Positions 2,601 to 35,391 of a DNA stretch of 64,000 nt are shown here, piece by piece. The translations under genes and the position numbers were made by a program. A model generated the notes under the pieces. It worked only from the letters and a program-made list of their open reading frames with translations, made no database searches and was not told where the DNA came from. Origin of the DNA: an uncultured bacterium (GTDB lineage: Bacteria > Patescibacteriota > JACMRA01); contig OY969926.1 in NCBI GenBank assembly GCA_963704645.1, forward strand, positions 1,202,569-1,266,568, written 5' to 3'. Positions within the stretch are counted from its first letter, which is position 1. The number at the start of each line of letters is the position of its first letter.

Positions 2601-3191
2601 TTAGTCCATGTATTTTGGTGTGAAAGGCATTAAAGCCATGTGTCTGGCACGCTTAATTGCTACAGTAATTTTTCTTTGGAATTTTGCTGAGTTTCCTGTT
2701 CTTGTTCTTCCAAAAATTTTAGCGTAAGGAGAAGTAAACTGGTTCAAGAAATCTACGTTTTTGTAATCTATAACACGTAAACCTAAGTATTTAGAAATAT
2801 CTTTCTTTCCAGCTTTACCTTTGTTTAAATCACGGTGTGATTGTACTTCGGCTTTCTCATTTCTAACTTCTTTAGATTGTTGCTTAATAAAATCGGTTTG
2901 GTTTACAATAATGTATCTAATTACTTCGTCTTGCAAGTTTAATTTTCTTTCAACTTCTTGTAATCTTGGTAAAACTTCTTTGTCTAAATCAAAATTAATT
3001 AATACGTAAAAACCAGATAAATGTTTTTCTATAGGATAAGCTAAACGAGCTAAACCTTGCTTGGCTACAGTTAATTCGGAGGCTTGTAAACCTGTAGTCA
3101 AAAAATCTGTAAGAGTGTTAATTTGTGTATCAACCTGTTCAACAGTAAGTTCAGGGTTAAGAACTAAATAAATTTCGTAATTTTGCTTCAT
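2601..3191 (-). CDS. rpsF/rpsR: Fused ribosomal protein bS6 (N-terminal) and bS18 (C-terminal), single 196-aa ORF
   Basis: Residues 1-~100 match S6: 'YEIYLVLNP...[22 protein letters not shown]...DEVIRYIIV'. The C-terminal ~70 aa match S18: '[50 protein letters not shown]'. There is no stop codon or frame change between the two parts. Confidence 0.85.
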
Positions 3192-3466: not shown

Positions 3467-6400
3467 TTATATATCCAACTCAATTTTCTTTTTCTTGCTC
3501 TGTCTATACAAAAATACTATCATGACAACCAAGACACTTAAACCAACTTGTGCAGCTGTTTCACCACCCGTTCTAACAAGAATGTTTTGGGGAGGTACAT
3601 TAGGAGTAATTTCAACCCTAGCACTGGTCGAGGCAATAGACTGATTAGTAATAGGATCTATAATGTCAGATGTTCCTTGAATACTATTTTGCAGACTGGC
3701 TTTTGGTAATACATCAAATACAACAGGAATAGTTTGGCCAGCTTGGGCATTAAGGATAGTTATCTTTAGGCTAGAAGAAGACAAGACCTGGAAACTAACT
3801 GTTGTTGCTGGTAGTGTTTGAGCATTTGCAGGAATAGAGAATAGAGAAGCTAACATACTTCCACTACCCTCCAAGAAGCTAAGATACTTAGTACCAACTA
3901 TACTTCCCTCTCTAGCTGAACCAGATACAAAGTCTAGTTTAGTAGTATCTATGTTAATTATAGTTTCAATCTTATCTACAACAAAGTTATTAGGGTTTGT
4001 AATATCCGCTTGAATTTTTAATGGCTGGTTAAGCAGAATGTTTGCATCTTGTTTTTCTTTGTAGAGAGTTAACTGTATATTTTGAATTATCACTGGCAAA
4101 GCATTAACAGTTAAGTTAACAGTAGCAGTATTGCTTTCTCCGTCATTGTTACAAGCCTTGTATACAAACGAATCTGAACCAGTGAAGTTATTAGCTGGAG
4201 TATAGATAATTTTGCCATTTTGAATAACCAAACTTCCTCCTGCAGTAGATTGTGATGCTGTAGGTGTTCCTCCATCTGCTGTGCTAAACAGTGAGTCAGC
4301 ACAAATACTGGTAGCTAGCGTGTCGTTAGCTAGAACGTCAATAGTTGTTGGTGAATTAATGTCTAAGGTAGCAGCGTCATTAGTTGCTGCAGGCAGTAGC
4401 AAGGTTACAGTAATATTTACAGTAGCTTCGTTAGAGAAGTCTCCTTGGTTATCTTTAATCTTGTAGGTAAAGAAGTCAGTACTGCTTTCAGTGTATGAAG
4501 ATGAAGTTGGGGTGTAAGTAACTTTTCCAAAATCAGGACTACCAACTTCAGTGTTAACGCTAACTGTTCCTTTAGTTGGTTGAGTAACTATTATTACACT
4601 ACCAAGGTCAAGAGTACCGTCGCCGTCTGTATCGTTAGCAGCAACTTCTACCACTAGTACAGAGTATTTACCTCCACTAGCAGCGTCGTTATTAGCAACT
4701 GGTAACTGATTTGCTGGAGGAACAGTAATATTAATTGTAGCTGTAGCTGTGTTAGAAGAATGATTCTGTGTATCTCTAATAATGTAAGTGAAAGAGTCGG
4801 TCCCACTTACTGGGTAGGAAGATGAAGTTGGAGTGTAGGTTACTTTCCCTTCGTTAGGGTCACCTACTGCTGTGTTAACGCTAACTGTACCTTTAGTTGG
4901 CTGGGTAACTATTGTTACACTACCAAGGTCAAGAGGAGCAGAAGTAGCAGTATCGTTAGCCGCAACGTTAAGAACTGTAGTGCTGGAAACTAAGCCTGAG
5001 GCAGTGTCCGAATTAGCTACAGGGTCTACAACTACATTAACCGTAACGGTAGCTTCGTTTGAAAAGTCTCCATCATTATCTTTAATTCTATAGGTGAAAG
5101 TGTCGGTGCCGTTTGCTATAAACAAAGCTGTGTTGGCTGTGTAGGTAATTCTTCCTGTAGTAGGGTTTACACTTACAGTTCCTTTAGCTGGGTTTTCTAC
5201 AATAGCAACGGTGGTTAAGTCTAAAGAGCCATCACTGTCTATATCATTAGCTGGAGAATTAATAACTACAGGGAAATTAGAAACAGTAGATGCCAATTCA
5301 GGGTTAGCTACAGGAGCAATGTTTGGTATTACAGTTACATCTACAGTAGCAGTATTACTTGGATTACCAGCAGGATCACAGGCTGTATAAGTAAAGCTAG
5401 TATTGCCAGAATATCCAGGGGTTGGAGTGAAGATAATTTGTTCAACTGTACCTATTACAGTTTTAGCTATAGTGCCGTTTGAATTGCTTACTGAAGATAG
5501 TGGCATGCAGATAGCAAGGTCTTGAGCAGAAGGATCACTATCGTTAGCTAGAACATCAATGGTTACAGAATTGTTTTGATCAGTGGTTACGGTATCGTTT
5601 ACAGCTACTGGGTTTACTGGGGTTACAGTAATGGTAACTGTAGTTTCAGAAGAAGGATTGGTTCCTGCTACAGTGCTACAGGCTGTGTAGGTAAGGGTGA
5701 TGTTTCCAGTGTAGCCAGCAATAGGACTAAAGAATACATTATCTACAGCACCACTGCCACTTCCTACAGTTACAATTGTAGCGCTACCATTTGATGAAGT
5801 AGGAGAAGGAGACAAAGTGACTGGATCGATAAACATGATCGAACCTGAGCAGATGTTAGTTGTATTAATGTCGTTAGTTAAAACAGGAATAGTAACTGAT
5901 GTGAACTCTGGGGTAATTGCGGTGTCTGGTATGGCTTCAGGCTGGTTTGGATTAATGGTTATGCTAGCTGTAGCAAAGCTGCTACTTCCATTTGGATTAC
6001 AAGTTTTGTAAGTAAAAGAGTCAGAGCCTACAGAACTACTGTCTGGAGTGTAAGTAAAGCTTCTTTTATCTGCACTTAAAGTTAATATTCCTTTAGCTGG
6101 AGATGTGAAGTTATCTGCTCCAAAGTCACAGACTGTGCTAGCAGCTAGATCGTTAGTTAAAACATCAATTACTACAGGTACTCCCTGGTTAGTAGTAGCA
6201 GTGTCATTAGCGGCTACTGGTGTATACAGTACAGTTACTGTGGCTGAGTTAGATTCTAAAGTAGGACTGCCACTATCTTTAATTGTGTAGCCAAAGGTAT
6301 CACTGAAGGGTGAAACGAAGGCTATGTTTGAATTTGCATTTGGGGTATAAGTAACTTTTCCAAAATCAGAACTTGTTGAGGTGGTGTTTACACTTACTGT

Positions 6401-9400
6401 ACCAGTAGCTGGTTGGGTTGTAATTACAATACTAGCCTTGTCCAAATTAGCGTTGCCTTCAGCGTCTGTGTCGTTAGCTGACACATCTACATCTGCTGGG
6501 TTAAAGGCAGGAAGGGTTATTGTATCATTTACAGCTACTGGCGGGGTGTTGTTTACGGTAATGGTTACTGTAGTAGTGCTACTTTCTCCATCGATGTTAC
6601 AAGCTTTATAGGTAAAGGTATCTGTTCCTGTGTAGTTATTGTTTGGAGTGTAGGTTATTTGATTACCTGAAATTATAGCAGTTCCGTTTGGAGTTGTGGC
6701 TGGAACCGAACCTGTACAGATTGAAGTTGCGTTAGTGTCGTTAGCTAGAACATCTATAACTATTGCACTGTTTGAGTTTAAGGTTCCCGAGTCAGGGTTG
6801 GCTATTGGTAAAACTACTGTGATGCTTATTGTGACAGTAGCAATATTGGAATAATCTCCATCATTATCTTTAATTTTGTAGGTGAAGGTATCACTGCCTG
6901 AAGAAGGATAGGAGGAAGGAGTTGGGGTGTAGGTTGCCTCTCCAGTAACTGGATTAATATTTACTGTTCCTTTAGTTGGGACAGTTTCAATTGTTACAGA
7001 GGTTAAATCTAAATTACCGTCTGAATCTGTATCGTTGCCAGTGACGTTGATAACAATAGGATTGTTTTTACTACCATCTGACGTATCATCATTAGCCACA
7101 GGAGCAATGTTTGGTATTACAGTTACATCTACAGTAGCAGTATTACTTGGATTACCAGCAGGATCACAGGCTGTATAAGTAAAGCTAGTATTGCCAGAAT
7201 ATCCAGGGGTTGGAGTGAAGATAATTTGTTCAACTGTACCTATTACAGTTTTAGCTATACTTCCATTAGATGGTGAGGATAGAGGAATACAAATTGTAAG
7301 AACCTGAGCAGAAGGATCACTATCGTTAGCTAGAACATCAATGGTTACAGAATTGTTTTGATCAGTGGTTACGGTATCGTTTACAGCTACTGGGTTTACT
7401 GGGGTTACAGTAATGGTAACTGTAGTTTCAGAAGAAGGATTGGTTCCTGCTACAGTGCTACAGGCTGTGTAGGTAAATGAAGTAGTTCCAAAGTAGCCTA
7501 TGGTTGGAGTGAATAGTATTTTATCTACTGTGCTACCAGCTGTGCCTGAAGGTACAATAGTAGCTATACCATTTGCAGCGTTAGAACCTAAGTTAATAGA
7601 ACCAACGCAGATATTGGTTGCGTTAGCGTCGTTAGCTAAAACGTCTATAGTAATAGGTGTTGATTCTGGGGTGGTTGAGGTGTCCGGGGTTGGTTGTAAG
7701 TCTAGAATACAAGTGAAAGCATTTTCAAGTGAAGCCGACTGACCATTACTATTGGAAACACTTACTGTTTGGGATAAACCGTTACTTGGTAAAGTTGTTG
7801 CAGTTAGTTGACCAGAAGAAATATATGTACCTTTTAGCTCTACTCCGCAGACAGTTACTGAGATATCATTAGGATTAAAATTAGTGTAGAAGCCATCTTG
7901 ATCTCCCTCAGAAGTTATAGTAATACCTCCAATTCCAACAGTATCAAAATATTCACCAGCAATATATAATTTTCCATTATATTCATAAACTGCTCTAACT
8001 TGATTACCGCCTACCCCTCCAATTGCTAATCGTCCTCCAGTTCCACCAATTCCATTTAGCTGAACTAGATTACCAGATGTGTCGTATTGTGCAAAGAAAG
8101 CATTAGTTCCAGCTCCTGTTATTTTCTTAATACCGTCAGTTAAAGCACTGCTATACCCTCCTCCAATCCATATTCTATCATTTGAGTCAATGAACAAATC
8201 TCTGGAAGTTCCAAAACCTGGACTTGGAAGAGATTTAACCCATTGGAAAACTCCAGTAGAGGTTAGTTTAGCTGTAAACACTGTCGCCCCAGTAAGAGAA
8301 CCATTAACATCAATAGTTCCAAACCTTCCTACGCTACCTCCAAAATATCCTGTTACATAAACATTTTCCGCAGAGTCTAATTTTATTCCATACGGTAAAT
8401 CAGTATTTAGATTTATAGGTCCTACAGTACCACCATTAACAGCCCAAACTTCATTACCTGAACTATTCAATTTTAATATAGCTATGTTACTAGAAGAACC
8501 AGTTCCATTACTAAAGTTAGATAGAGAATTTAAAGTAGTAGAGCCAAATGTAATAGATTGAGTATAACCCATTGTAGTATAGACGTTACCATTGGAATCA
8601 ACTGTTAGACCATGCATTTCGCCGTTATCTCCATTTGTGTCACTGGGACTAAGCATTGCAGAATAAGGGTAATGTTTAACCCATATATAATCACCATTAG
8701 GGCTTAATTTAGCTATAAAGAATTCACCAAAAGATGATGCAATGTTAAAACTAAAGTTTCCGAAAGTTGCTGTGCTTCCACTAACTTTTCCAGAGAAATA
8801 TATATTTCCAGCGTCATCTACGTCTACGTTAGTTCCATTTTGTACAGGGAATTCTGTTCCAACATTGAAAATAGTATTTGCAGTACCTCCTCCCCCTTTA
8901 GCCCAAATAAACTCACCTGTTGTTTTATTAATTTTTGCTATAAATACGTTTGATCCAACACTTCCTGTTAAAGTAGTAGAACCAAAAGTAGCAGTGCCAG
9001 AATAGTACCCAGCCACAACAATTGCGTTATCGGCTTCGTCGTTGCCCATAGATTGCTTCCTTGTAAAACCGTCTCTTGTACTTCCTCCAGCTTTGGTGGC
9101 CCATAGATAATTTCCAGCGCTATCAATTTTAGCAATATAAATATCTTGCTCTCCGCTACTAACTAGGGTTGTGAATCCTAAAGTTATTGTTCCTGTAAAT
9201 TCTCCAGAAACATATTGGCCTGTGCTATCAACCACCATACCTCTTATACCATCATAGTTTGTAGAGCCAATACTACTAATATCTTGGTATTGCCCTTCAA
9301 CAAAATTAGCACCATTTACAGTTACGTTAGTTCCACCAGAAGCAGGGCCGTAGGTAGGACTAACCGAGCTAATAGACGGATTAGGAGTCAGTGCAGATGT

Positions 9401-12400
9401 CCAGTTAGCATTAAAGCCAGATAAATCCAGGTCAGAAGGAATGCTATCAGGATCAGCATTAGGATCAATATTAGAATCATTACTGGTAAAGGTAATCACC
9501 ATCAAGCCTGAATTAGAGGTAATACTACTTGGTAGGTTGTTTCCAGAAAACTCTCCCAGAACTAAACTATCTGTGGTTAAACCATCATATACTTTAACAA
9601 CATCCACACCTTCTTCAGTTTCTAGATTATTAAAATCTAGAGTTACAGATTCAGCGTTAACTGGAGCAATAATCCACCTACAATTAGAATTAATTCTATA
9701 TGCAGAGCTACCAGAACTTACATTACCAGAACTTTCTGAATAAGTTTCGGTGCCAGAACAATAATTTATTACAATATTAGTAACCGTTAGAGTTACTCTT
9801 GTAGAAGTATAAGTTGCTGAAACTTGAACAGTTTTATCACCATTTTGAAAAGTAGCAGATGAACCAGCTGGAAGGTTAGAAAATTCTCCTGTAATAACAT
9901 TTCCATTGGTTGTTTCTATTAAGGTTCTAGTTTCTCCAACAGTATTTCCAAAGAAAGAAAGGTCTAATCTTGTTCCATTCAAATTTAAATTGGAACTTGT
10001 AATTGTAGTTTTATTGGTTGCCCAAGCTCCGTATGATGAAGCTGAACCACCATTAAAGTTTATTCCATAAGCAGTAATCAGACCCGGTCTTTGCTGAATT
10101 GTGGATGAGTTATTTAAATTAATTGAACTATTAGGTACATTTAAATTTCCAAAAACCCAGATAGTTCCGTTATTAACGTCAACAGTTCCGTTTAAAGTTG
10201 TAGCTGAGGAATAATTTATTTCAAGAGTTCCGCTATTAAGTATAAAGTTTGGATCAATTTTTTGATTGGCAGTGAAAATTAAGTTAGATTGACCATTTTT
10301 AACAAAAGTACCAGTACCGTTTATATTTCCACTGAATTGGCTATTCAAAGAATCACAGCCTGTAGTATAAGTTTTACCAGCGTTAATAGTAATATTTCCA
10401 CTTCCTTCTATTTTGCAGCTGGTCACATTGGTGTTAAAAATAAAATCTCCGCTACCAGCAGTTGTGCTAATTCCAGCCGACACGTTTAAGTTGTTACCCG
10501 AAAGAATATATGGCTGTGAGTTTAGTGATTCAACTACTACAGTGCTTAAGCTTAGCCCAACAATATCATTGTTCAAATTATACGTGGAAGCTGAGGATGG
10601 GAAAATTATGCTCGTTTCGCTGTTTGGAATACTATCCTGGCAATTAGTCCAGTTTCCGCTATTTGAAAAATTGCTGTTGATACTACCTGTCCAAGTACAA
10701 ATTCTACTAGCATACAAATAAGTAAGCCCAGTGTATTGAGTCCCGTCTCCATTTGTTAAAACAACGTTTACTAAACCAGGGGCGCGAGCAGGAGTAAGTG
10801 CAGTGATGGTAGTAGAGTTAACAGCAGTTACCGAACTAGCTGCTACTCCGTCAAACGTAGCAGATAATGAGCCTTGTATATTGATACTATTGCTAGCAGG
10901 GCTGGTTCTTTGTGTAGTGTCACCATAGCCTAGCTGACCAGCAAAATTGTATCCCCAACATTTTACATTTCCTGTGGAAAGTTGGGCGCATGTGTGATTA
11001 TCTCCAGCGCTAACCTGTGTTGCTGTACCTCCTAAAACTAGGTCTAATCCTGGTGTATTTCGGTTTGTAGTGTTGCCATAACCTAATTGCCCATAACCAT
11101 TGTATCCCCAACATTTTACGTTTCCAGTAGAAAGTATGGAACAAGTGTGATTGGCACCAGCTGTAAGCTGAATTGTGGCAGCTCCCAATGCTATATCAGC
11201 ACCCGGTGTATTTCGGTTTGTAGTGTTGCCATAACCTAATTGCCCGTAACCATTGTATCCCCAACATTTTACATTTCCTGAAGAAAGTAGAGCGCAGGTG
11301 TGGCTATCTCCAACAGTAATCTGAGTTGCAGTACCTCCTAAATCTATATCTGATTCGGGACTGGTTCTTTGTGTAGTATCACCGTAACCTAGTTGGCCAT
11401 AAGAATTATCTCCCCAGCATTTTACACTTCCAGTAGATAGTAGAGCGCAGGTGTGGTAAGTTCCAGAAATAATCTTAGTTGCAGCACCCCCTAAATCTAC
11501 ATCTGGCCCTGGAGTATCTCTTGAAGCAGTGTCGCCATAGCCTAGCTCGCCATAGTTATTATAACCCCAACACTTTACATTTCCAGAAGAAAGTAGAGCA
11601 CAAGTACGATCTGTTGAAGTAATAATCTGAGTTGCAGCTCCCCCTAAATCTACATCTGGCCCTGGAGTGTTTCTGTCTGTATAATCACCATAGCCTAGTT
11701 GGCCCCATCCATTATAACCCCAACACTTCACATTTCCAGAAGAAAGTAGAGCACAAGTATGTCTTTCTCCCGCACTAATCTGAGTTGCAGCTCCCCCTAA
11801 ATCTAGGTCTGATCCTGCTGTATTTCTGTCCGTATCATCACCATATCCTAATTGGCCATATAGATTATATCCCCAACATCTTACTTTACCAGTTGAAAGT
11901 ACTGTGCATGTGTGATTTTTTCCAGCACTAGTTTGAACCACTCTTGCTTGAGAAGTAAATCCTGCACCTGTAAAAGTTACACTAGAGCCTCCTGCTATGT
12001 TACCAGAGTTTGGAGTAATTGTTGGTAAAATTACCGTTACATCACCACCATTAGCATAAACAGAGCCACTTCCGCTTGCACTGTACTGACTTGTAAGGGT
12101 TCCAGGGTTGCTACTCGTAGGAATATTGTTACAAGTAATAGTTGGACCACTTGCCACCAAAGGACAGTTTACAACCACCCCAGATATTCCAATACGTACA
12201 TTTACACTTCCTAAAAGAATATTTTGGTCTGCGCTGGTAATAATGGTACAGTTTACAGCTCCGTTCTCCATTACTGTGTTTGGGTTACAGGTTAAACTTG
12301 TAATATCCGAGTTAATTATAGGTCTTGGTACAGCGTAGGTATAAGCGTTATTTAAATTATAAACAGTACCATCTCCATTTGTTAAAACTACATTTACTAG

Positions 12401-15400
12401 TCCAGCAGCATGGGCAGGTGTAACTGCGGTGATGGTAGTAGAATTGACTACAGTTACAAAGGATGCAGCCATTCCATCAAAAGAAGCAGATAAAGAACCT
12501 GGCATAGAAATGCTATTGCTAGCAGGACTGGTTCTACCTGTTAAATCTCCATAGCCTAGTTGACCATAAAAATTGCCACCCCAACATTTTACATTTGCAG
12601 AGGAAAGTAGTGCACAAGTCTGGTAAGCACCTGTACTAATTTGAGTTGCAACACCCCCTAATGCTATATCTTGCCCTGGTGTATTTCTGTTGGCAGTATT
12701 GCCATAACCTAGCTGGCCGTTAGAATTAAATCCCCAACACTTTAAGTTTCCAGTAGAAAGTAGAGCGCAGGTGTGATTAGTTCCACCAGAGACTAGAGTT
12801 GCAGTACTCCCTAAAGCTATATCTGGTCCTGGTAGATTTCTGCTTACATTGTCACCATATCCAAGCTCGCCATTTCCATTATATCCCCAACATTTTACGC
12901 TACCATTAGAAAGAACTGCACATGTGCGAATCTCACCAGCAAAAACTTGAGTTGCAGTGTTTCCTAAAGCTATATCCGGTCCTGGTAGGTTTCTGTTTGT
13001 ATCGTCTCCGTAACCAAGCTCGCCGTAACCATTGTATCCCCAACATTTTACGTTTCCAGTAGAAAGTAAGGCGCAAGTGTGAAATCTTCCAACACTAACC
13101 TGAGTTGCAGTAGCACCTAGAGCTATGTCTGGTCCTGGTAGATTTCTATTCGCAGTATCTCCGTAGCCTAGTTGTCCGTATTGATTGTTTCCCCAACATT
13201 TTACGTTTCCAGTAGAAAGTAAGGCGCAGGTATGACTAGTTCCAGCGCTAACCTGTGTTGCAGTAGCGCCTAGAGCTATGTCTGGTCCTGGTAGGTTTCT
13301 TTGTACAGTATCACCATAGCCTAGCTGGCTATTAAAATTAGCTCCCCAACATTTTACGTTTCCAGTAGAAAGAACTGCACAGGTGTAACGATTTCCAACA
13401 CTCACCTGTGTCGCAGTAGAACCAAGGGCTATATCTGGTCCTGGTGAGTTTCTGTTTGTGGTGTTTCCATAGCCAAGTTGACCATTAGAATTCTCTCCCC
13501 AACATTTTACATTTCCGACAGATGTCAGAGCACAAGTATGATATTCTCCAGCGCTTGTCTGAACCACTCTTGCCTGAGAAGTAAATCCGACACCTGTAAA
13601 AGTTACGTTAGATCCACCAGCTATGTTGCCAGAGTTTGGAGTAATCGTTGGTAAGATTACCTCTATATTTGCACCATCAGCATAAACAGAATTACTTCCG
13701 CTGGCACTGTACTGACTTGTAAGGGTTCCAGGGTTGCTGCCCACAGGAATGTTATTACAAGAAACAGTTGTGCCATTTGCAGCTACAGGACAGTTTACGA
13801 CCGTACCAGAAGTGGTAATTCTTACATTCACACTTCCTGAAAGAGTGGTTTGATCTACATTAGTTGTTATTGTACAATTTACTAAGGAATTAACATAAAT
13901 TGTATTTGATGCGTTATTACACACTAAACTTGAAATATCTGAATTTTGGATTGGAATTTTAGCTGGCGCTATTACAATATCGTTACCGTTAACATAAACA
14001 GAATTACTTCCACTAGCACTATACTGGCTTGTAAGAGTTCCAGCGTTGCCGCCTAAAGGAACATTATTACAGATAATAGTTGAACCAATTACTGCTACAG
14101 GGCAGTTTACTACTGTACCAGAAGTTCCAATTCGCACATCCACACTTCCTAAGAAATTATTTTGTTCAATGTTGGTTGTTATAATACAGCTTACATTAAA
14201 CTCAGCAAAAGAAGAACTTGGACTACACACTAAACTTGCAATATCTTCGTTAGTTATAGTTCTCGGCACTACGTAAGTATAAAGATCGTTTAAATTATAA
14301 ACAGCACCGTCTCCATTTGTTAAAACAACGTTTACCAATCCTTCAGCATGGGCAGGAGTAACTGCTATAATAGTTGTGGGATTCACATAAGTCACTGAAG
14401 TTGCTGCTATTCCATCAAACGATAGAGATAGGAGGCTTTGTATAGAGATGCTATTATTAGCAGGGCTGGTTAACTCTGTAGTATTTCCATTACCTAGTTG
14501 GCCGTTAGAATTACCACCCCAACATTTTACGCTTTCATTAGAAAGGACAGAACAAACATGGCTAGACCCAACACTCACCTGATTTGCACTTAATCCTAAT
14601 GCTATATTTGATCCTGGACTAGTTCTTCGTGTAGTATCACCATAACCTAGTTGTCCACTATAATTAGCACCCCAACATTTTACGTTTCCAGAAGAAAGCA
14701 AGGCACAAGTGTTGCTAAATCCAGTAGCAATCTGACTTGCAGTATCTCCTAGCGCTATATCTGAACCTGGAGTATTTCTTTGTGTAGTGTCACCATAGCC
14801 TAATTGACCTTCTCCATTATTTCCCCAACATTTTACATTACCGTTAGAAAGAAGGGCACAAGTGTGATTACTTCCAACATTAAGCTGAGTTACTGCACCT
14901 CCTAAAGATATATCTGGTCCTGGCAAGGTTCTACTTGTAAAATCACCATATCCTAGTTGGCCGTTTCCATTATATCCCCAACATTTTACATTCCCAGTAG
15001 AAAGAAGGGCACAGGTGTGAGACTGTCCAGTCGTAACCATAGTTGCAGTAGCCCCTAAATCTACATCTGGTCCTGGAGAGCTTCTATCTATATTATCGCC
15101 ATATCCTAATTGGCTATATCCATTGTAACCCCAACATTTTACATTACCATTAGAAAGAAGGGCACAGGTGTGAGACTGTCCAGTCGTAACCATAGTTGCA
15201 GTAGCTCCTAAAGCAATTTCTGGCCCTGGAATAGTTCTTAAAGAAGTATCACCATATCCTAATTGGCCGTTTCCATTATATCCCCAACATTTTACATTAC
15301 CATTAGAGAGTATTGCACAAGTGTGACTATCTCCAGCAACAACCATAGTTGCAGTAGCTCCTAAATCTACATCTGGTCCTGGTAGATTACTGTTTATAAA

Positions 15401-18400
15401 ACTTCCAACACCAAGTTGGCCATAATAATTAGCACCCCAACATTTTACATTTCCACTTGAAAGAAGGGCGCAGCTATGATTAGCTCCAACACTGGTCTGA
15501 ATTACTCTAGGCTGTGGAGTAAATCTGGTTCCACTTAAAGTTACATTAGATCCTCCTACTGTAGAGCCAACATTTGGAGTAATTGTTATAGGTACAACCA
15601 CTATATCATTTCCATTTGCATAAACAGGGCTGCTTCCACTAGCACTATACTGACTAGCAAATGTTCCACCATTATTTCCTACAGGAATATTATTACAAGT
15701 TATGGTTGTGCCACTTGGGACTAAAGGACAGTTTACTACAGTTCCAGAATCTCCTATACGTATATTCACGCTTCCAGAAAGAATATTTTGATCTGTGTTA
15801 GTTGTAGTAGTACAATTTACTGTAGTGTTTGCTACCGTAGGAGTTGGATTACAAACTAAAGCTGAGATATTAGAGTTTTGAATTGGTGTTATAGGTATAA
15901 CAACTATATCATTTCCATTAGCATAAACAGAGCTGCTTCCGCTAGCACTATACTGACTAGCAAATGTTCCGCCGTTACTTCCTACATTAATATTATTACA
16001 AGTTATGGTTGTGCCACTTGGGACTAAAGGACAGTTTACTACAGTTCCAGAATCTCCTATACGTATATTCACACTTCCTGAAAGTGTATTTTGATCTACA
16101 TTGGTAGTTATGGTACAGTTTACGTTAGTGTTTGCTATTGCTGTAGTTGGAGTACAGGTTAGTGATGAAATGTTTGAGTTAACAACGTCTGGGGGTGCAG
16201 CATAAGTGTAAGCATTATTTAAGTTAAATGCAGCACCATCTCCATTAGTTAAGACCACGTTTACAAGCCCATCAGCATGAGCAGGTGTAACTGCAGATAT
16301 GGTGGTAGGGTTAACTATAGTTACTGAGGTTGCAGCTATACCGTCAAACAAAGCAGATAAATTACCTAAAATAGAAAGACTATCACTTGCGGGGCTTGCC
16401 CTTCCTATAGTATCACCATAGCCTAGTTTTCCATAAGAATTGTCACCCCAGCATTTTACACTATCAGCTGAAAGTACAGCACAGGTGTGATTTGATCCAG
16501 CAGCAACCTGAAGCGAGTTGGCTCCCAAAACTATATCTTGTCCAGGCAAGGTTCTTAGTGAATAATCTCCATAGCCTAATTGGCCTGAAAAATTAGCACC
16601 CCAGCATTTTAATTTTTCATTTGATAAAAGGGCACATGTGTGGAAAGGTCCCACACTAATCTGCCTGGCATTAGCCCCTAAAGATAAGTCTGACCCTGGT
16701 ACGCTTCTTGACGTAGTGTCACCATAGCCTAATTGACCATAAGAATTGTCGCCCCAACATTTTGCTTTTCCAGAAGAAAGAATTGCACAGGTGGAACTTC
16801 CTCCAAGAGTAATTTTAGTTGCGGAAGTTGCTAAAACAATATCTGGCCCTGGTGCGTTTCTTGATGTAGTATCGCCATAACCTAGTTGGCCATAGAAATT
16901 ACCACCCCAACATTTTATATTTCCTGAGGAAAGAATTGCACAGGTATGAACATCTCCGACGCTAACCTGAGTTGCAGCCGCTCCTAAATTTATATCTGAG
17001 CCTGGTGCGTTTCTTTGTGTGTTGTCACCGTAACCTAACTGTCCAGAAAAATTAGCACCCCAACATTTTACACTTCCAGTGGAAAGAAGGGCACAGGTGT
17101 GAAACCTTCCAGCAATAATTTGAATTGTAGTGGCTCCTAAATTTATTTCAGAACCAGGTGCGTTTCTTTGCACAGTATCACCATAACCTAGCTCGCCATT
17201 TCCATTATATCCCCAACATTTTACATTTCCATTTGAAAGAAGAGCGCAAGTATTATTTTCGCCGGTGCTAATCTGTGTGGCACTAACTCCTAAATTTATA
17301 TCTGATAACGCGCTACTTCTGTTTGTAGTGTCTCCATAACCTAACTGGCCGTTTCCATTATATCCCCAACATCTTACATTTCCAGTAGATAGAAGGGTGC
17401 AAGTATGATTTTGACCGGCACTTGTCTGAACCACTCTGGCCTGAGAAGTAAAACCAGTTCCAGTAAAAGTTACTGTAGTTCCCCCTACTGTATTACCAGA
17501 AGTTGGTGAAAGAGTTATGGGTATTACCGCTACGTTGTTACCATTAGAGTAAACAGAATTGTTACCACTTCCACTATACTGACTTGCAAAAGTACCAGAA
17601 TTAGCACCTACGGGAATATTGTTACAGGTTATAGTTGTACCACTGGCGTTTACAGGGCAATTGACCACCAAACCAGAATCTCCGATACGAACATTTACAC
17701 TTCCAGAAAGTTCATTTTGGTTTATGTTTGTAGTTATTATACAGTTTACAGTAGTGTTTATTATTGCTGTAGTTGGACTACAAGATAAGCTTGCAATATC
17801 CAAGTTATTTATATTTCTTGGAACAGCGTAAGTATAACCATTATTTAAATTATAAGTGGAGCTATCTCCATTTGTTAAGACTACATTTACTATTCCCTCA
17901 GAACGAGCAGGTGTAACTGCAGTTATTGTAGTAGAGTTAACATAAGTTACTGATGATGCAGCTATTCCATCAAAAGTAACAGTGAATGTAACTAGTACAG
18001 GAACAATATTAGCATCAGGGATATTTCTTTGTATGGTATCGCCATAACCTAATTGCCCGTATTCATTATTACCCCAGCATTTTACATTACTAGTTGAAAG
18101 AACAGCGCAAGTATTGCCTCCTCCAGTACTAATAAAAGCTGCAGCAGTTCCCATATTTATGTCGGGACCAGGTGCGTTTCTTTGAGAATAATCTCCATAG
18201 CCTAATTGGCCATTATAATTTTCGCCCCAGCATTTCACGTTTCCATTAGAAAGTAAGGCGCATGTGTGATAGCTTGAAGTACTAATAGAAGTTGCATTAG
18301 CTCCTAAATTTATATCGGGACCAGGTGCGTTTCTTTGGGTGGTGTCACCGTAGCCTAGTTGACCACTAGAATTAGCACCCCAGCATTTTACATTTTCGGT

Positions 18401-21157
18401 AGAAAGCAAGGCGCAAGTATGATAGAATCCAGCATTAGCACTGATTGCATTAGATCCTAAATTTATATCAGGTCCAGGTGCGTTTCTTTGAGTAGAATCT
18501 CCATAACCTAATTGGCCATTGGAGTTGCTTCCCCAGCATTTTACATTTCCTGCTGTAAGTACAGCACAGGTATGATCGCCTCCAGTAATAACCTGTATTG
18601 CGGTGCCGCCTAAAGCTATGTCTGGCCCTGGAGTATTTCTTGTTGTTGTATTACCATAGCCTAGTTGACCATTAAAATTACTACCCCAGCATTTCACGTT
18701 TCCATTAGAAAGTAAGGCGCATGTGTGAGCACCTCTAGAGCTAATCTGAGTAGCAGTAGACCCAAGACTAATACTTGGTCCAGGGGCATTTCTCTGGGTA
18801 AAATCGCCATAGCCCAATTGTCCATTTCCATTATTTCCCCAACATTTTACACTTCCGTTAGAAAGTAAGGCACATGTGTGAAAATATCCAGAGGTAATTT
18901 GAGTTGCGGTATCTCCTAAAGGTATATCAACCCCTGGCGTGCTTAAGTTTGCAGTGTCGCCATAGCCTAGCTGGCCGTTTCCATTGTAACCCCAACATTT
19001 TACGCTACCATTCGAGAGTAAGGCACAAGTGTGAAGCGATCCGCTACTTGTCTTTACAACTCTAGCTTGATTACTAAATCCTGCTCCTGTAAAAGTTACT
19101 GTAGTTCCTCCAAGTATGTTACCAGTATTTGGTGCAAGTATTATAGGCTCTACTACTATATCGTTGCCGTTAATATAAGTGGAGCTACTTCCACTAGCTG
19201 CAAATTGACTTGTAAGAGTTGTTACATTAGTTCCAACATTAACATTATTACATGCTAAAGTTGTACCGCTAGCAGCTAAAGGACAATTAACAACTGTACC
19301 AGAATCTCCTATACGTACATTCACACTTCCTGAAAGAATGTTTTGGTCTGTGCTGGTTGTAATTGTACAGTTTACTGTAGTGTTTGCTATTGCTGTGGTT
19401 GGGTTGCAGGTTAGCGATGAAATGTTTGAATTTTGAATTGGTGTAATTGGTATAACCACTATATCATTACCATTAACATAAACAGAACTACTTCCACTAG
19501 CACTATATTGACTTGTTAAAGTTCCACCATTACTTCCAACATTAACATTATTACATGCTAAAGTTGTACCGCTAGCAGCTAAAGGACAATTAACAACTGT
19601 ACCAGAATCTCCTATACGTACATTCACACTTCCTGAAAGAATGTTTTGGTCTGTGCTGGTTGTAATTGTACAGTTTACTGTAGTGTTTGCTATTGCTGTG
19701 GTTGGGTTGCAGGTTAGCGATGAAATATTGGAGTTTTCTATTGGAGTGGTTGGTATTACAACTATATCATTGCCATTAGCATAAACAGGGCTGCTTCCAC
19801 TAGCACTATACTGACTAGCAAATGTTCCACCATTATTTCCTACAGGAATATTATTACAGCTAATACTTGTACCGCTTGCTGCTATGGGACAGTTTACTAT
19901 TGTACCAGAATCTCCTATACGTACATTCACACTTCCTGAAAGTGTATTTTGGTCTACGTTAGTTATTATGGTACAGTTTACTGTGGTGTTTACTATTCCT
20001 GTGACTGGGTTACAGGTTAAACTTGTAATATCAGAGTTTTGAATGGCTGGATTTAAATTTGGTATTTCATAAGTAATTCTATAATTATTTGTTAAAACAT
20101 TACTTCTATAGACTGCTTGTCTTCCAACTAACCCCAAACTATCTGACAAACCTATACTTGCTGAACTTCCAAGCTCAGACATATTTAAATATTGAATAGC
20201 TATCGCTCCATTTTGACTTAATAATACCTGAAAAGTTAATGAGCCACTTCCACAACATTTCTGTACCTGATTCCACTCTATAACAAAAGTTTGATTGCCA
20301 GGATCTCCAATTGTTTTGGTATAAATGGTACCTTGTCCTCCTCCATTATATAAATCTGCCCAATATGGAGCTATAATATTCCTACTTGATGTACCTGTAG
20401 ATGGCAAAACAGTATTACTATAAGATGAGTTAGCACCGTTAAATGAAATTAAACCATTAGAGCTAATGTACATTGAATTATATGCATTACCATAAAAATT
20501 AAAGGTAAATGGTAAAGATTTTAAAATTGAATTATCGTCTGCAAATAAGCCGGTACTATCACCATCGGTTGCGTCTACCCAGCTAAACCCCGAAGCGTTA
20601 AGTGTTTGTGTATAGTTAAATGGTTCAGCTGAAACCACTATATCATTACCATTAGCATAAACAGAACTACTTCCACTAGCACTATACTGACTTGTTAAAG
20701 TGCCGGGATTACTGCCAACAGGAATGTTATTACAAGAAATAGTTGTGCCACTTGCTTCTACCGGACAGTTTACTACTATACCAGATGTTCCTATACGCAC
20801 ATCTACGCTTCCTGTAAAAGTACTTTGATCTTCATTAGTTGTTATAATACAATTTACTGTAGTGTTTACAATTGCTGCAGTTGGTTCACAAATTAATGAT
20901 GCAATGTCTTCATTAACTATATCTCCAGAAGCTTGAGCTATTTTAAAATCTCTTGGTGTAAGATTAGAAGCAGCCATTAGCCCACCTATAAGCATTATTA
21001 AGGTTAAAAGTAGCAACCCTGTATTAAGAAACTTATTATTGTTGAATTTACGGGTTTTTAAAATTTTTTTAAACCAATTTAACTTAGCCTGTGGGCCACT
21101 TCTGAAACTCATATTTATTTCTATTTTTGTTTTAAAGTTACTATAACCCTTAACCAC
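3467..21157 (-). CDS. Giant (5,896 aa) mosaic cell-surface protein: four-Cys modules, NIDO-like, 5x RCC1 propeller, IPT/TIG, CUB, SBBP propeller, 12x cadherin-like, DUF11-like, sortase-type C-terminal signal
   Basis: A single uninterrupted 17.7-kb ORF. It has an N-terminal basic segment plus a TM helix ('[16 protein letters not shown]'). Domain motifs are listed in the sub-features below. It ends with LVRTGG, a hydrophobic helix and a KKKK tail. Confidence 0.9.
   Translation of the reverse strand: [5896 protein letters not shown]
3470..3580 (-). other. C-terminal sortase-like sorting signal (LVRTGG + TM helix + KKKK)
   Basis: '[38 protein letters not shown]'. The L-V-R-T-G codons are at 3580-3566. 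The tripartite layout matches LPXTG signals, but Pro is replaced by Val. Confidence 0.5.
5311..5693 (-). repeat. Near-identical intragenic duplicate, copy 1 (partner 7099-7475)
   Basis: Blocks 5311-5480 and 5523-5693 match 7099-7268 and 7305-7475 by eye. The offset is 1788 nt for the first block and 1782 nt for the second, because of a 6-nt in-frame indel. The encoded peptides '[55 protein letters not shown]' and '...[53 protein letters not shown]' occur twice verbatim. Confidence 0.8.
7099..7475 (-). repeat. Near-identical intragenic duplicate, copy 2 (partner 5311-5693)
   Basis: See the partner feature at 5311-5693. Confidence 0.8.
7880..9270 (-). other. SBBP-type beta-propeller region
   Basis: Repeated pattern '...(V/Y)(V/Y)(V/T)G.F.G(T/S).TFG...L......D(I/V)F(I/V)AK(L/I)...G...W(A/V)K..GG', as in SBBP repeats (for example '[23 protein letters not shown]' and '[22 protein letters not shown]'). 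Confidence 0.6.
9411..9763 (-). other. CUB domain
   Basis: '[99 protein letters not shown]...SGFNANW' fits the CUB consensus C.G....G.i.S..Y....C.W.I......i.L.F..f.lE...D.v.vYDG......g.f.G...P..i.S.s..l.i.F.SD....GF.A.y. Confidence 0.7.
9960..10560 (-). other. Beta-helix / autotransporter-associated (PATR-like) repeat region
   Basis: Gly/Asn/Thr-rich degenerate repeats such as '[16 protein letters not shown]', '[19 protein letters not shown]' and '[31 protein letters not shown]'. The family assignment is tentative. Confidence 0.35.
10890..11945 (-). repeat. RCC1 propeller 5 (7 RCC1 repeats), flanked by IPT/TIG domains
   Basis: Seven ~50-aa repeats of 'HTC(A/T)(L/V)LS.G.[13 protein letters not shown]...R..PG.D(I/V).LG..A.Q(I/V)..G'. 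An upstream IPT segment reads '[28 protein letters not shown]', and a downstream one reads '[38 protein letters not shown]'. Confidence 0.8.
12035..12330 (-). repeat. Four-Cys ~97-aa module, copy 10
   Basis: 'DITSLTCNP....[46 protein letters not shown]....[24 protein letters not shown]'. Confidence 0.7.
12510..13570 (-). repeat. RCC1 propeller 4 (7 RCC1 repeats)
   Basis: Same repeat signature as propeller 5, again bracketed by IPT/TIG-like segments. Confidence 0.8.
13665..14265 (-). repeat. Four-Cys module, copies 8-9 (tandem)
   Basis: Same consensus: (D/N)I(A/S/T)SL.C.P......VNC.I.T...Q....GSV.VRIG.SG.VVNCP...SG.T..CNN(I/V).(V/L)G...[14 protein letters not shown].D(I/V).V. Confidence 0.7.
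14450..15510 (-). repeat. RCC1 propeller 3 (7 RCC1 repeats)
   Basis: Same repeat signature (for example '[27 protein letters not shown]'). Confidence 0.8.
15595..16190 (-). repeat. Four-Cys module, copies 6-7 (tandem)
   Basis: Same consensus as copies 8-9. Confidence 0.7.
16380..17440 (-). repeat. RCC1 propeller 2 (7 RCC1 repeats)
   Basis: Seven repeats counted explicitly, from [26 protein letters not shown] through [26 protein letters not shown]. Confidence 0.8.
17525..17815 (-). repeat. Four-Cys module, copy 5
   Basis: Same consensus as copies 8-9. Confidence 0.7.
18000..19070 (-). repeat. RCC1 propeller 1 (7 RCC1 repeats)
   Basis: Seven repeats counted explicitly, from [26 protein letters not shown] through [26 protein letters not shown]. 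Confidence 0.8.
19145..20050 (-). repeat. Four-Cys module, copies 2-4 (tandem, 303-nt period)
   Basis: Same consensus as copies 8-9. Copies 3 and 4 share a perfect ~193-bp run (19231-19423 = 19534-19726, offset 303). Confidence 0.8.
20065..20620 (-). other. NIDO-like (nidogen-like) domain
   Basis: '[27 protein letters not shown]....[23 protein letters not shown]..........FVIEWNQV' matches the NIDO pattern f.FyG..y..lyvs.NGliSF......iaPfWaDvd....G.vyy. Confidence 0.6.
20630..20925 (-). repeat. Four-Cys module, copy 1
   Basis: '[92 protein letters not shown]'. Confidence 0.7.
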
Positions 21158-21382
21158 ATTTTTGTCATTTTGAGTTTTTTTAAGCTGGGTATATTTTACA
21201 CTACTTTTCTACAAAAAAACTTTTCCATACTTAATAATATTTTGTTTCAGTTTTTAATCTATAAATGTTTAGAAGTATTATATTTAAATGAAATAATAAG
21301 AAAAGCTTGTAGAAAATTAATTGCTTGGAAAACAAAAATTGTATGCTTGTATTCAGATGGTAAATTTGCAGGTAACAAAAGA

Positions 21383-21703
21383 ATGAATTGGAAATTTTGG
21401 GTATTATTTGTTGTGGCAATCTATTTGATTGCAGTCCTAAGACTTGATGTACTGAGCACGTTAATTGCACTAGTTGGTCTCGCAATTGGTTTATTTGTAA
21501 TCACAAGTGTTTTTGTTCTTGTAGTAATAATTTTGATTATCTCCGCAATTTTATCAATTCCATATTTGGCTCTAGGTTGCCATGGGATTGTAATAAAGAA
21601 TGGTGAAACTTTTTGCACAAAAGGAGATGGTGCAGTCATTAAAGTCAATAATGTTAATACATTTTTCGGGGTAATGGCAAAATCCGCTCCTTCATTAATA
21701 TGA
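21383..21703 (+). CDS. Small membrane protein (106 aa; 2-3 TM helices), hypothetical
   Basis: The internal ATG at 21383 ('MNWKFWVLFVVAIYLIAVL...') is preferred over the listed start at 21170, because the first 71 codons overlap the promoter region of the giant gene. The TGA stop is followed by a terminator hairpin. Confidence 0.4.
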   Translation: MNWKFWVLFVVAIYLIAVLRLDVLSTLIALVGLAIGLFVITSVFVLVVIILIISAILSIPYLALGCHGIVIKNGETFCTKGDGAVIKVNNVNTFFGVMAKSAPSLI

Positions 21704-24569: not shown

Positions 24570-25772
24570 CTATTTAACAACCTGGCAAAGTGCAAGAATA
24601 TAGCTTAAGTCTGGATAGCAAGACATATGGGTTACGGCAAAACTAGACTCATTCATTTCACCAATAAAAGATTTTAATGTGTGGCTATAATGATTCCAAA
24701 TTACTATTTCCTCATTTTCTTTGAAAGAGAGTATTTTACTTCCCCATTCTAAATTAAATTCTAAATCAATATCCTTTAATAATTTCATTACTTGCAGTCT
24801 CCTACCAGAATTTTCATCATACTTACTTACTATTTCGTACATGTCTGTTTTAAAACCTAAAAGCTGGGGTATCCAAAGTTTCAAGGATGTTATGTAGGGG
24901 TTATTAGCTGTAACAAAACTAGACCTCCATTCAGGTGTATCAAGGCCGTTGTCTAAAATTAAAATATCGTCTACACCCATACTATTTTTTAAATTTTTTA
25001 ATACTTGCTGTCTGTTTGCTACATTACCGAGTGTAGAGCCAATAAATAAAAGAACATTACAAGAGTTGGAATTTTTTAACTTATTATTAAATAGTAAATC
25101 ACGTATTAAAATTTGTTCAATATCTGCTACAATATTATTTACTTCAATATTTGGATACCATTTTTCCATATTTTTAGTTAAAATATTTTGAATGTCCTTA
25201 CTTAAATCTATACTTGTATAGTTTATTTTAGCTTGTGTTTGTAGAATATCTATTAGGGGTTTAATAGTGTACCCATTGCCAGGACCAATATCAATAATAT
25301 TAACTTGTTCATAATCTTTAAGTCTAAAATCAAAATAGTTTAAGCTTGTTTCCAATAGCCTATTTGTTTCGTCCAAATGATAATCTTTATTATTAATCAT
25401 TGACTTAACGTATTCATCCCACAATTTAGCTCCTCCATTTAAATAGGCAAATTTTAGTGGAATACTACCATTACTTTCTAGGCTGGTAATAAGCTCAATA
25501 ATTTGACTTTCATTTAAAATATTTTTCAATGCTGGGCTTGTAGTTATCTTCTCGAAAGCAATCTTATTTCTATATTTTTCTGCATTAGTTTTTAGTTTAA
25601 GCAATTCAGCCTCATTATGCTGGTTATCAATTATGAAGTATTTATTATTTATTTCGTGCAACAGCAAATTATTTTCTTTTTTTAGTGCAGCTTCGACCCA
25701 TCTTGCAACAGTAGGGTGAGCAACTCCAAGTTGTTTAGAAATAGTGTAATTTCTTATTGTTTTGATATCCAT
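24570..25772 (-). CDS. HTH domain fused to an EgtD-like (Methyltransf_33 family) SAM-dependent methyltransferase
   Basis: The N-terminal 'ISKQLGVAHPTVARWVE' is a helix-turn-helix. 'IPLKFAYLNGGAKLWDEY', 'IIDIGPGNGYTIKPLI', 'YTSIDLSKD' and 'LLFIGSTLGNV' parallel the EgtD-family motifs (P.k..YD..Gs.Lfe.I, ELG.G...K, Y.piDiS, f.GSsiGNf). Confidence 0.65.
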   Translation of the reverse strand: MDIKTIRNYTISKQLGVAHPTVARWVEAALKKENNLLLHEINNKYFIIDNQHNEAELLKLKTNAEKYRNKIAFEKITTSPALKNILNESQIIELITSLESNGSIPLKFAYLNGGAKLWDEYVKSMINNKDYHLDETNRLLETSLNYFDFRLKDYEQVNIIDIGPGNGYTIKPLIDILQTQAKINYTSIDLSKDIQNILTKNMEKWYPNIEVNNIVADIEQILIRDLLFNNKLKNSNSCNVLLFIGSTLGNVANRQQVLKNLKNSMGVDDILILDNGLDTPEWRSSFVTANNPYITSLKLWIPQLLGFKTDMYEIVSKYDENSGRRLQVMKLLKDIDLEFNLEWGSKILSFKENEEIVIWNHYSHTLKSFIGEMNESSFAVTHMSCYPDLSYILALCQVVK

Positions 25773-25864
25773 GGGGTAAAGTTGTTGTTTGGTGTTTATT
25801 ATTTGACATGCTTACAAAAATATTGTACACATTGGCCACACAATTTTTAAGTACAAATAATTAT

Positions 25865-26092: not shown

Positions 26093-26095
26093 AAT

Positions 26096-28777: not shown

Positions 28778-28873
28778 CTCCTAGTCTTCCTCCAGTAATA
28801 CCAATTTCTACCAACTAAAAATATTGCCTTGCTAAAATTTACAACCTGCGTCAGAAATAATTAATACTAATTT

Positions 28874-29845: not shown

Positions 29846-29939
29846 TTAGTAGAAATATTATTAGTAAGTTTTTTAGATTGCTATACTGGCCAAATAGCAT
29901 TTTGCATGGTACAATGCTAATATAACTAATTATCAATTA

Positions 29940-32765: not shown

Positions 32766-32818
32766 TTTGTTTTTGTTTTTGTTTGTTTAAAGTTTAGTAT
32801 GTTTTGTGAATCCTTAAA

Positions 32819-35388: not shown

Positions 35389-35391
35389 AAA

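Follow-up and report, generated by a model that had tools for sequence, protein, structure and literature searches.

The 64,000-nucleotide stretch analysed here (contig OY969926.1, positions 1,202,569 to 1,266,568, referred to as the window) belongs to an uncultured bacterium of the Patescibacteriota and contains one uninterrupted open reading frame (ORF) of 17.7 kb, at 3467..21157 on the minus strand, which amounts to 5,896 codons when counted from a GTG and encodes a giant multidomain protein. As judged by profile matching, six propellers of this protein, five of the RCC1 type and one of the SBBP type, are each nested in a split TIG domain, and the RCC1 units alternate with copies of a four-cysteine module, here called C4. 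By analogy with known adhesins, we consider the giant protein to be probably, although by no means certainly, a multivalent, strain-specific fibrillar cell-surface adhesin of a bacterium of the Patescibacteria (candidate phyla radiation, CPR). Giant modular adhesins and RCC1-rich giant proteins are already known as kinds; what is new here is the nesting of a propeller in a split TIG domain, the occurrence of six such units in one chain and the private C4 spacer.

An earlier note on this DNA, made from the sequence alone, had described the RCC1 blocks as bracketed by separate IPT/TIG domains, a description that has to be revised. The TIG piece that precedes a propeller matches positions 1-27 or 5-28 of the TIG profile (PF01833) and the piece that follows it positions 32-84 or 33-84, with single halves scoring 23 and 31 bits. 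When the propeller was deleted in silico and the two flanking pieces were joined and rescored against the 84-position profile, RCC1 blocks 1, 2 and 5 each gave one ungapped match, starting at position 5, 6 or 8 and ending at position 84, with 52-60 bits. The unit holding the SBBP-type propeller, the N-terminal piece of which matches positions 1-27, gave a spliced match to positions 1-83 of 84 with 56 bits, and splicing likewise restored the match in two related proteins (P0135, P0126) and, in an unrelated protein (L069), in each of its two units; these proteins are all described below. Since the spliced halves restore a nearly full TIG domain, the arrangement written as IPT-RCC1x7-IPT corresponds to a single TIG domain with an inserted propeller; on this profile evidence, the two pieces around each propeller are halves of one TIG domain, interrupted after its first strands. 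The termini of an RCC1-type propeller, which closes on itself, lie next to each other, so its insertion into a TIG loop is geometrically easy. A literature search joining RCC1 with TIG found no paper that describes the nesting of an entire propeller in a split TIG.

The layout of the giant protein, from the N-terminus to the C-terminus and with residues numbered in amino acids (aa), is as follows; a supermodule is one block of seven RCC1 blades together with its two TIG halves, and (-) denotes the minus strand.

3467..21157 (-): whole ORF, 5,896 codons from the GTG, with a likelier start at the ATG at nucleotide (nt) 21112 that gives 5,881 aa
20930..21112 (-): N-terminal leader, aa 16-76, with a lysine-rich n-region, a helix at aa 42-68 by hydropathy scan and the sequence KIAQA followed by SGD
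20624..20926 (-): C4 module 1, aa 78-178, by local hidden Markov model (HMM); the AlphaFold model of a sister copy has a predicted local distance difference test score (pLDDT) of 92
20063..20620 (-): NIDO-like region, aa ~180-365, PF06119 at 32-37 bits over profile positions 1-51 of 186 only
19142..20050 (-): C4 modules 2-4, aa 370-672, by local HMM; copies 3 and 4 hold the longest exact repeat
17819..19141 (-): supermodule 1, aa 673-1113, TIG N-half, seven RCC1 blades and TIG C-half
17516..17818 (-): C4 module 5, aa 1114-1214, by local HMM
16193..17515 (-): supermodule 2, aa 1215-1655, split TIG with seven RCC1 blades; the spliced TIG matches 6-84 of 84 with 59.6 bits
15587..16192 (-): C4 modules 6-7, aa 1656-1857, by local HMM
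14264..15586 (-): supermodule 3, aa 1858-2298, by Pfam and CWG motif
13649..14263 (-): C4 modules 8-9, aa 2299-2503, by local HMM
12326..13648 (-): supermodule 4, aa 2504-2944, by Pfam and CWG motif
12023..12325 (-): C4 module 10, aa 2945-3045, by local HMM
10700..12022 (-): supermodule 5, aa 3046-3486, by Pfam, CWG motif and TIG splice test
9764..10699 (-): beta-rich module without family, aa 3487-3798, beginning CTWTG...GNW, with no Pfam, NCBIfam or PDB match
9458..9763 (-): CUB domain, aa ~3799-3900, PF00431 at 52 bits, positions 1-100 of 110
7700..9382 (-): sixth nested unit, aa 3926-4486, TIG N-half, SBBP-type propeller of ~470 aa and TIG C-half
4088..7690 (-): 12 cadherin-like/Big_9 repeats, aa ~4490-5690, with a period of ~100 aa, a putative extender stalk
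3593..4087 (-): C-terminal beta-rich domain, aa 5691-5855, without family match
3470..3592 (-): sorting-signal-like tail, aa 5856-5896, with LVRTG, a helix at aa 5864-5886 and RQSKKKK

The organization of the 35 RCC1 repeats into five blocks of seven, as previously claimed, is confirmed by the agreement of motif count, profile matching and structural superposition. The CWG motif occurs 35 times, exactly seven times in each of five blocks and at a spacing of exactly 51 aa, and Pfam recognized 37 stretches of RCC1_2 (PF13540) and 30 of RCC1 (PF00415), combined over two overlapping N-terminal segments that cover the array (776 and 520 bits, respectively, in the larger segment), while WD40_RLD (PF25390) was also matched very strongly. 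The AlphaFold model of one block, that of supermodule 2, reached a pLDDT above 90 over aa 125-480 of the model and was superposed by Foldseek on the seven-bladed UVR8 with a template-modelling (TM) score of 0.91 and a root-mean-square deviation of 1.4-2.0 Å over 373 columns at 32-33% identity. On this model, the RCC1 blocks are closed seven-bladed propellers. The fold is common to the RCC1-like domains of UVR8, RCC1 and HERC, but these are eukaryotic, cytosolic or nuclear, and do not have a cysteine pair in each blade, whereas the propellers of the giant protein are presumably extracytoplasmic and consist of blades that are about 60% identical to each other. The cysteine pair (HTC...KCWG), present in every blade (10700-19141, minus strand) with its members nine residues apart across a predicted hairpin, is also invariant in two-propeller homologues from Chloroflexi and Bdellovibrio, which suggests a cross-strand disulfide staple typical of extracellular bacterial RCC1 propellers. 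Contrary to what had been stated, RCC1 is not sporadic in bacteria, since a query with a single supermodule retrieved at least 7,989 proteins at E <= 1e-10 among the 8,000 candidates scored; the matches listed are mostly RCC1 proteins of 700-900 aa with two propellers, from Chloroflexi and Bdellovibrio, without TIG.

The blades also carry a record of how the array arose. Any two of them are about 60% identical, which is unusually uniform, and the terminal blades of each block find their best match at the same position of other blocks, which indicates that whole supermodules were duplicated. In the interior of blocks 3-5, on the other hand, the best match of a blade is its neighbour, with 78-84% DNA identity, which suggests local homogenization. 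The most variable positions are blade columns 7-8, the two residues preceding the conserved HTC, which we take to correspond to the W-R of the GWRHT surface motif of UVR8. On this correspondence, the 35 blades would seem to have diversified their binding faces on a rigid, disulfide-stapled scaffold.

The frame was verified to be open throughout, as claimed. Translation probably begins at the ATG of codon 16 (nt 21112), which is favoured over the GTG because the leader read from there (MSFRSGPQAKLNWFKKILKTRK...) aligns with the leaders of relatives. A repetitive ORF of this length could also be an assembly artefact, namely a collapsed, expanded or chimeric fusion of shorter genes bearing similar repeats: shorter genes with subsets of these modules do occur in related genomes, and exact repeats of 150-199 bp are found at two places, the longest one inside the gene (150-199 bp) lying between C4 copies 3 and 4. 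However, the five supermodules share 63-65% protein identity and 68-72% DNA identity in pairwise comparisons, and at a distance of about 30% in DNA, with synonymous divergence (dS) near 1, reads would map uniquely. In addition, the 17.7 kb frame has a uniform GC content at third codon positions (GC3), the gene sits on a 1.27-Mb contig, and the domain order is coherent, with a leader and an anchor at opposite ends and neither of them inside the chain. The supermodule pairs, with dS of 0.84-1.2 and a ratio of nonsynonymous to synonymous divergence (dN/dS) of 0.21-0.34, are old duplicates held under purifying selection; as dS is about 1 and dN/dS about 0.25, neither a collapsed assembly nor a decaying gene is favoured. 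A collapsed or chimeric assembly thus appears unlikely from the sequence, and an artefactual origin of any kind is, in our view, exceedingly improbable.

The local HMM located ten C4 modules of about 101 aa each, one before the NIDO-like region, three before block 1 and then 1, 2, 2 and 1 between successive RCC1 blocks, in line with the one or two four-cysteine modules previously said to separate the blocks. The four cysteines are invariant. The module had no match in Pfam, NCBIfam or PDB sequences, and an exhaustive HMMER search with three C4 copies against 1.84 billion representative proteins retrieved homologues in 25 clusters, 19 of them at E <= 1e-10; a query composed of a TIG C-half, two C4 modules and a TIG N-half matched only eight proteins, for the most part short fragments. 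From an alignment of the ten paralogues and three homologues, AlphaFold produced an eight-strand beta-sandwich with a pLDDT of 92.3, to which Foldseek returned only weak matches of the immunoglobulin (Ig)-like type (antibody V, complement MG, EBF1 IPT/TIG and PKD domains, with E of at least 2e-3 and TM scores of 0.4-0.6). By this model and the rarity of its homologues, C4 is a lineage-restricted Ig-like domain: a compact, confidently modelled fold without family assignment.

The remaining domain assignments differ in strength. The claimed CUB domain is well founded, with 52.3 bits against a cut-off of 21.4 over positions 1-100 of the 110 in PF00431, and a search of PDB sequences retrieved cubilin (E = 2e-14) as well as PCPE-1 and neuropilin-2. 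The NIDO-like region scored above the cut-off of PF06119 (32-37 against 25 bits) and, at about 186 aa, has the expected size, but only positions 1-51 of the 186-position profile aligned and no solved relative was found by sequence, so this claim holds in a weak and partial form. The same applies to the SBBP propeller, for which scores of 26.8 and 20.8 bits lie just above the Pfam cut-off of 20.5 (PF06739) but are weak, and the NCBIfam model Lepto_SBBP_lipo matched in part (65.8 bits with a cut-off of 400; positions 190-462 of 466). The cadherin-like units number 12 by motif spacing, as had been counted, with Big_9 (PF17963) giving 403 bits over 11 stretches and Cadherin_4 (PF17803) and Cadherin_5 (PF17892) giving 206 and 164 bits, respectively. 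Pfam, NCBIfam and PDB sequence searches found nothing for the beta-rich module at aa 3487-3798 or for the C-terminal domain at aa 5691-5855; the latter, compared by eye and unscored, has the FDVLPK motif in common with the pre-anchor region of P0122 and a like layout.

Only two hydrophobic segments, at aa 42-68 and aa 5864-5886, were found by a hydropathy scan of the whole protein. The first belongs to the leader, the layout of which is shared by members of the protein family described below and by further surface proteins encoded in the window, and which ends in a putative AxA signal-peptidase site, with cleavage after KIAQA and before SGD. The second lies between LVRTG and RQSKKKK, which agrees with the wall-anchor-like C-terminus noted earlier; the C-terminus of P0139 is similar, with IRTGG, a helix and a KK tail. 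The existence of Legionella RCC1 effectors and of RCC1-like domains in toxin complexes (as cited in bioRxiv 10.1101/2023.11.21.568195) would also allow for a secreted effector or toxin-delivery protein rather than a tethered adhesin. Yet toxin, enzyme and secretion-system signal domains were undetected in Pfam and NCBIfam, the C-terminus consists of an anchor-like helix and a basic tail, and the 134 cysteines of the protein, with their conserved pairs, fit an extracytoplasmic disulfide-bonded protein, making a secreted effector very improbable.

C4-bearing proteins form a small family that reshuffles common parts, none of its members having more than one RCC1 propeller. Their layouts, with TIG(SBBP) and TIG(RCC1x7) denoting nested units, include the following.

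P0123, P0124 and P0129: leader, beta-rich module, CUB, TIG(SBBP), one or two C4 modules and a weakly WxL-like end
P0135, 835 aa: leader, TIG(RCC1x7), C4 and a WxL-like end
P0128: DUF285 repeats, C4, NIDO-like region and a WxL-like end
P0126 (MEI6729282.1), 2,175 aa, partial: CUB/SBBP core with C4, TIG(RCC1x7) and C4

The WxL-like end of the relatives scores 17 bits, which is below the cut-off. The beta-rich module of the giant protein (aa 3487-3798) is present once or twice in P0123, P0124, P0126 and P0129, its C4-NIDO pair recurs in P0128, and a 1,318-aa protein from locus L001 is 47% identical to its aa 3487-4472, which span the beta-rich module, CUB and TIG(SBBP). Three further family loci (L004-L006) were found in a metagenome scan. 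P0126, P0135, P0129 and L004-L006 resemble the giant protein in drawing on the same leader, beta-rich module, CUB, TIG(SBBP), C4 and TIG(RCC1x7), with 47-60% identity, but range from 835 to more than 2,887 aa and contain no more than one RCC1 propeller, with C4 present in one to three copies; the majority of them end in a WxL-like region, whereas the giant protein has cadherin repeats and a helix anchor instead. The giant protein looks like a concatenation and expansion of such architectures. L001 (JBILXY010000019.1, 4203-8159, plus strand), a metagenome-assembled genome from Lake Mendota, is alone among the GTDB representative genomes in encoding a C4-bearing protein; it was deposited as 'Bdellovibrionales bacterium', but its GC content of 0.33-0.40 and lack of TGA stops resemble the lineage of the window, the neighbouring genes are housekeeping genes uninformative about the taxon, and the contig may have been misbinned.

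The nested unit reaches beyond this family. A 3,953-aa protein encoded by an unrelated organism (L069; Ga0247817_10000090, 6665-18523, plus strand; GC 0.45) contains two TIG(RCC1x7) units with Ig-like domains between them and, after them, a long Ig-like array and a membrane helix, as in the giant protein, but it has no C4, CUB or SBBP, its spacers are whole TIG domains, and it carries a C-terminal HATPase_c domain of the histidine-kinase type; it may be a giant extracellular sensor kinase and not an adhesin. In a further locus (L013), TIG and invasin-type Ig domains accompany two RCC1 propellers. Because L069 carries the unit twice, neither the unit nor its iteration is unique to the giant protein; the statement that no described protein with an iterated supermodule was known therefore holds only for five copies with C4 spacers, which are unmatched. 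Giants with multiple RCC1 propellers had, moreover, already been described in Oscillospiraceae (West-Roberts et al., bioRxiv 10.1101/2023.11.21.568195). These are also very large, have multiple seven-bladed propellers and are predicted to be extracellular, but they are described as a single repeating domain over their full length, without a transmembrane anchor, whereas in the giant protein RCC1 accounts for about 30% of the chain, is nested in TIG and alternates with C4, in the company of at least eight domain types and an anchor-like helix.

A surface and adhesin role, as already proposed in the earlier note, is the most reasonable reading of this architecture, and adhesion to a host is a candidate function. 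The long Sec-type leader would export the protein, with cleavage likely after KIAQA, and the LVRTG, helix and lysine-rich tail would keep it at the cell surface, by anchoring it in the membrane or by serving a sortase-like reaction. The 12 cadherin-like repeats beside the anchor would act as an extender and the distal two thirds as the ligand-binding region, in which ten C4 and six TIG Ig-like domains may form a rod, with the six propellers budding sideways and the CUB and NIDO-like domains in line. The chain would enter and leave each propeller at one point, so tension would run via the Ig-like rod and leave the propellers as free multivalent heads.

Such a display has a precedent in the RTX adhesins, the ligand-binding domains of which "emerge from split domains"; these Ig-like domains project the binding module off the fibre axis, and the termini of the module are adjacent (PMC12077191). 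By this split-domain criterion, ligand binding would fall to the six propellers as heads, and the load-bearing rod would consist of the TIG and C4 domains; the split-TIG display supports a multivalent adhesin without proving it. The giant protein shares with the RTX adhesins of Aeromonas hydrophila (AhLap), Vibrio cholerae (FrhA) and Marinomonas (MpIBP) the giant fibre, the Ig- or cadherin-like extenders beside the anchor (PMC12077191) and binding domains that bud from split Ig-like domains, a resemblance of mechanism and not of family membership. In Pfam and NCBIfam searches, it was found to be without RTX nonapeptide repeats, a type I secretion signal and an N-terminal retention domain. Furthermore, its orientation is reversed, with a C-terminal anchor and an N-terminal binding region, its envelope is of the monoderm type, and its buds are seven-bladed RCC1 and SBBP propellers in six split units, not one to three. 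Membership of the RTX adhesin family was ruled out, as there was no RTX/HemolysinCabind match and the C-terminus is a transmembrane helix.

Several points weigh against the adhesin reading. RCC1-like propellers serve many functions, and the fold alone does not imply adhesion. The LVRTG motif differs from the canonical LPXTG, no sortase was found among the 29 other window ORFs scanned, and the matches to NIDO and SBBP are weak or incomplete. In the AlphaFold model of an IPT-RCC1x7-IPT unit, the confidently predicted propeller is flanked by TIG halves with a pLDDT of about 30, so that the model leaves the nesting unconfirmed and the nested geometry rests on profile matching; these low values, like those of 52-66 for C4 in the model of C4 with TIG(RCC1x7), arise because only five sequences aligned there. 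Finally, the absence of the gene from the two nearest relatives, presented below, holds for the syntenic locus on contigs of 19-25 kb and not for whole genomes.

The target of the proposed heads might also be other than a partner cell. CUB, SBBP-type propeller and cadherin-like modules are generic binders, and genes for PA14-domain and dockerin-like proteins and a fragment of glycoside hydrolase family 10 (GH10) lie in the same window, which would fit a lectin-like nutrient-capture fibre binding plant, algal or detrital glycans or particles. Within the giant protein, however, Pfam and NCBIfam revealed no carbohydrate-binding module or glycoside hydrolase domain, and the GH10 ORF is merely a C-terminal fragment. 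The mechanism overlaps with that of an adhesin, the target alone being different, and we consider nutrient capture unlikely while granting it a small but real chance.

The genomic context bears on the strain specificity of the proposed adhesin. The contig is 1,272,640 bp long, and the best named relatives of the TopA encoded in the window are from the Patescibacteria group, SR1 and Gracilibacteria, with 57-62% identity, which substantiates the small genome (about 1.27 Mb) ascribed to the host. The gene for the giant protein occupies a slot between topA and an rpsF/rpsR fusion gene. In the two nearest relatives, L002 (TopA 89% identical) and L003 (81%), topA, the S6/S18 fusion gene and ruvX follow in the same order with no trace of the giant gene; the slot holds an 865 bp spacer in L003 and three small unrelated genes in L002, and sequence conservation with the relatives across it is confined to the topA terminator and rpsF promoter regions. 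Because the slot lacks the gene in both, the giant protein is best regarded as an accessory, strain-specific surface trait, plausibly one that determines which partner cell or surface is bound.

This distribution also bears on whether the giant protein could be a general envelope or surface-layer scaffold, acting as a spacer or coat with structural or self-associating propellers. Such a role would be in keeping with the unusual uniformity of the blades (about 60% identity), the very large size of the protein relative to the genome and the many other surface proteins nearby. An essential coat, however, would be expected in relatives with TopA identities of 81-89%, and the gene is absent from their syntenic locus; split-domain head display is a hallmark of adhesin ligand-binding regions, and variability is concentrated at putative surface loop positions. 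The scaffold role is accordingly given a slim chance, and the adhesin reading is retained.

The GC content of the giant gene (0.39) exceeds the value of about 0.31 against which it was compared, the excess lying at codon positions 1 and 2. A foreign origin on this ground was ruled out, since its GC3 of 0.226 equals that of the neighbours and the excess is due to a composition rich in glycine, threonine, serine and alanine. No mobile-element signatures were seen at the insertion slot. Promoter and terminator scans gave no more than shuffled sequence, save for a terminator-like hairpin after topA, and an Rfam scan of the window found tRNA-Trp only.

On the rpsF side of the slot, S6 (aa 4-96) and S18 (aa 140-188) are fused in a 196-aa ORF (2601-3191, minus strand); gene calls in both L002 (230 aa) and L003 (197 aa) show this fusion as well. 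A second variable island (24570-30932) flanks topA on its far side and holds genes for a histidine-specific methyltransferase-like protein, a nucleotidyltransferase and a member of the endonuclease/exonuclease/phosphatase family, together with genes without known function. These genes are missing at that position in L003, where a homologue of 30993-32765 lies immediately beside topA. For one of the genes (28874-29845), a homologue with 71% identity is located at another place on L002.

The window contains further putative surface proteins. Three tandem paralogues of about 800-850 aa (53837-61532, plus strand) have thrombospondin type 3 repeats and a C-terminal DUF11-type domain; two of them have an identical 70-residue C-terminus, and all three have the lysine-rich leader and AxA site of the giant protein. 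Other large ones, encoded on the minus strand at 43656-47222, 48623-52267 and 30993-33442, comprise a 1,188-aa PA14-domain protein, a 1,214-aa protein without family match, a 590-aa protein (30993-33442 region) with a sub-threshold CarboxypepD_reg-like match and a 207-aa dockerin-like protein, the last two being conserved beside topA in L003. The GH10 fragment is a 172-aa ORF (53225-53743, minus strand) that covers only the C-terminal half of the family (168-310 of 311) and represents a truncated xylanase or a remnant. A DsbD_2-type membrane protein adjoins a membrane-anchored thioredoxin (both within 34651-35976, minus strand); the pair is plausible as an extracytoplasmic thiol-disulfide system, which would fit the number of cysteines and the cysteine pairs of the giant protein.

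The codon TGA appears to be avoided in this lineage. Of the 30 window ORFs that reach 150 aa or more, 18 are terminated by TAA and 12 by TAG, none by TGA, and in-frame TGA is absent from all of them; TGA-ended window ORFs of at least 100 codons are either antisense to real genes or the ORF at 21083-21703, which falls in the spacer between topA and the giant gene and has no family match. None of the 35 genes called in L002 and L003 has a TGA stop, and the tRNA-Trp (38777-38850) has the standard CCA anticodon. In SR1 and Gracilibacteria, the nearest named clades, UGA is read as glycine. Here UGA may be unassigned.

For the CPR predator Vampirococcus, giant surface proteins have been reported that probably serve in attachment to the host (PMC8080830). 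Like the organism studied here, Vampirococcus lugosii has a small Patescibacteria genome, a large coding share of which is devoted to membrane-anchored multidomain giants, for which recognition and holding of the host are proposed, but those have 1,392-4,163 aa and contain WD40, PKD, DUF11, integrin and fibronectin domains, with RCC1, TIG-nested propellers and C4 unreported (PMC8080830); V. lugosii uses genetic code 25, whereas the lineage of the window shows no in-frame TGA. A wider proposal is that the TIG-nested propeller is an undescribed adhesin block used across phyla, which carries the split-domain display of the Gram-negative RTX adhesins to monoderm-type Patescibacteria and to whole seven-bladed propellers, and that six of them chained with C4 act as a strain-specific, multivalent determinant of partner range in a lineage that has apparently abandoned UGA; we put this forward tentatively, as possible and short of probable.

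For annotation, a simple rule follows from the nested units: two TIG half-matches around a propeller mean one split domain. To our knowledge, little beyond type IV pili is understood of the way in which ultrasmall Patescibacteria recognize and hold partner cells. The giant protein is a concrete candidate for partner recognition that can be cloned in pieces, as six separately expressible heads, and since close relatives differ in whether they have the gene at this locus, its distribution can be compared with their partner range.

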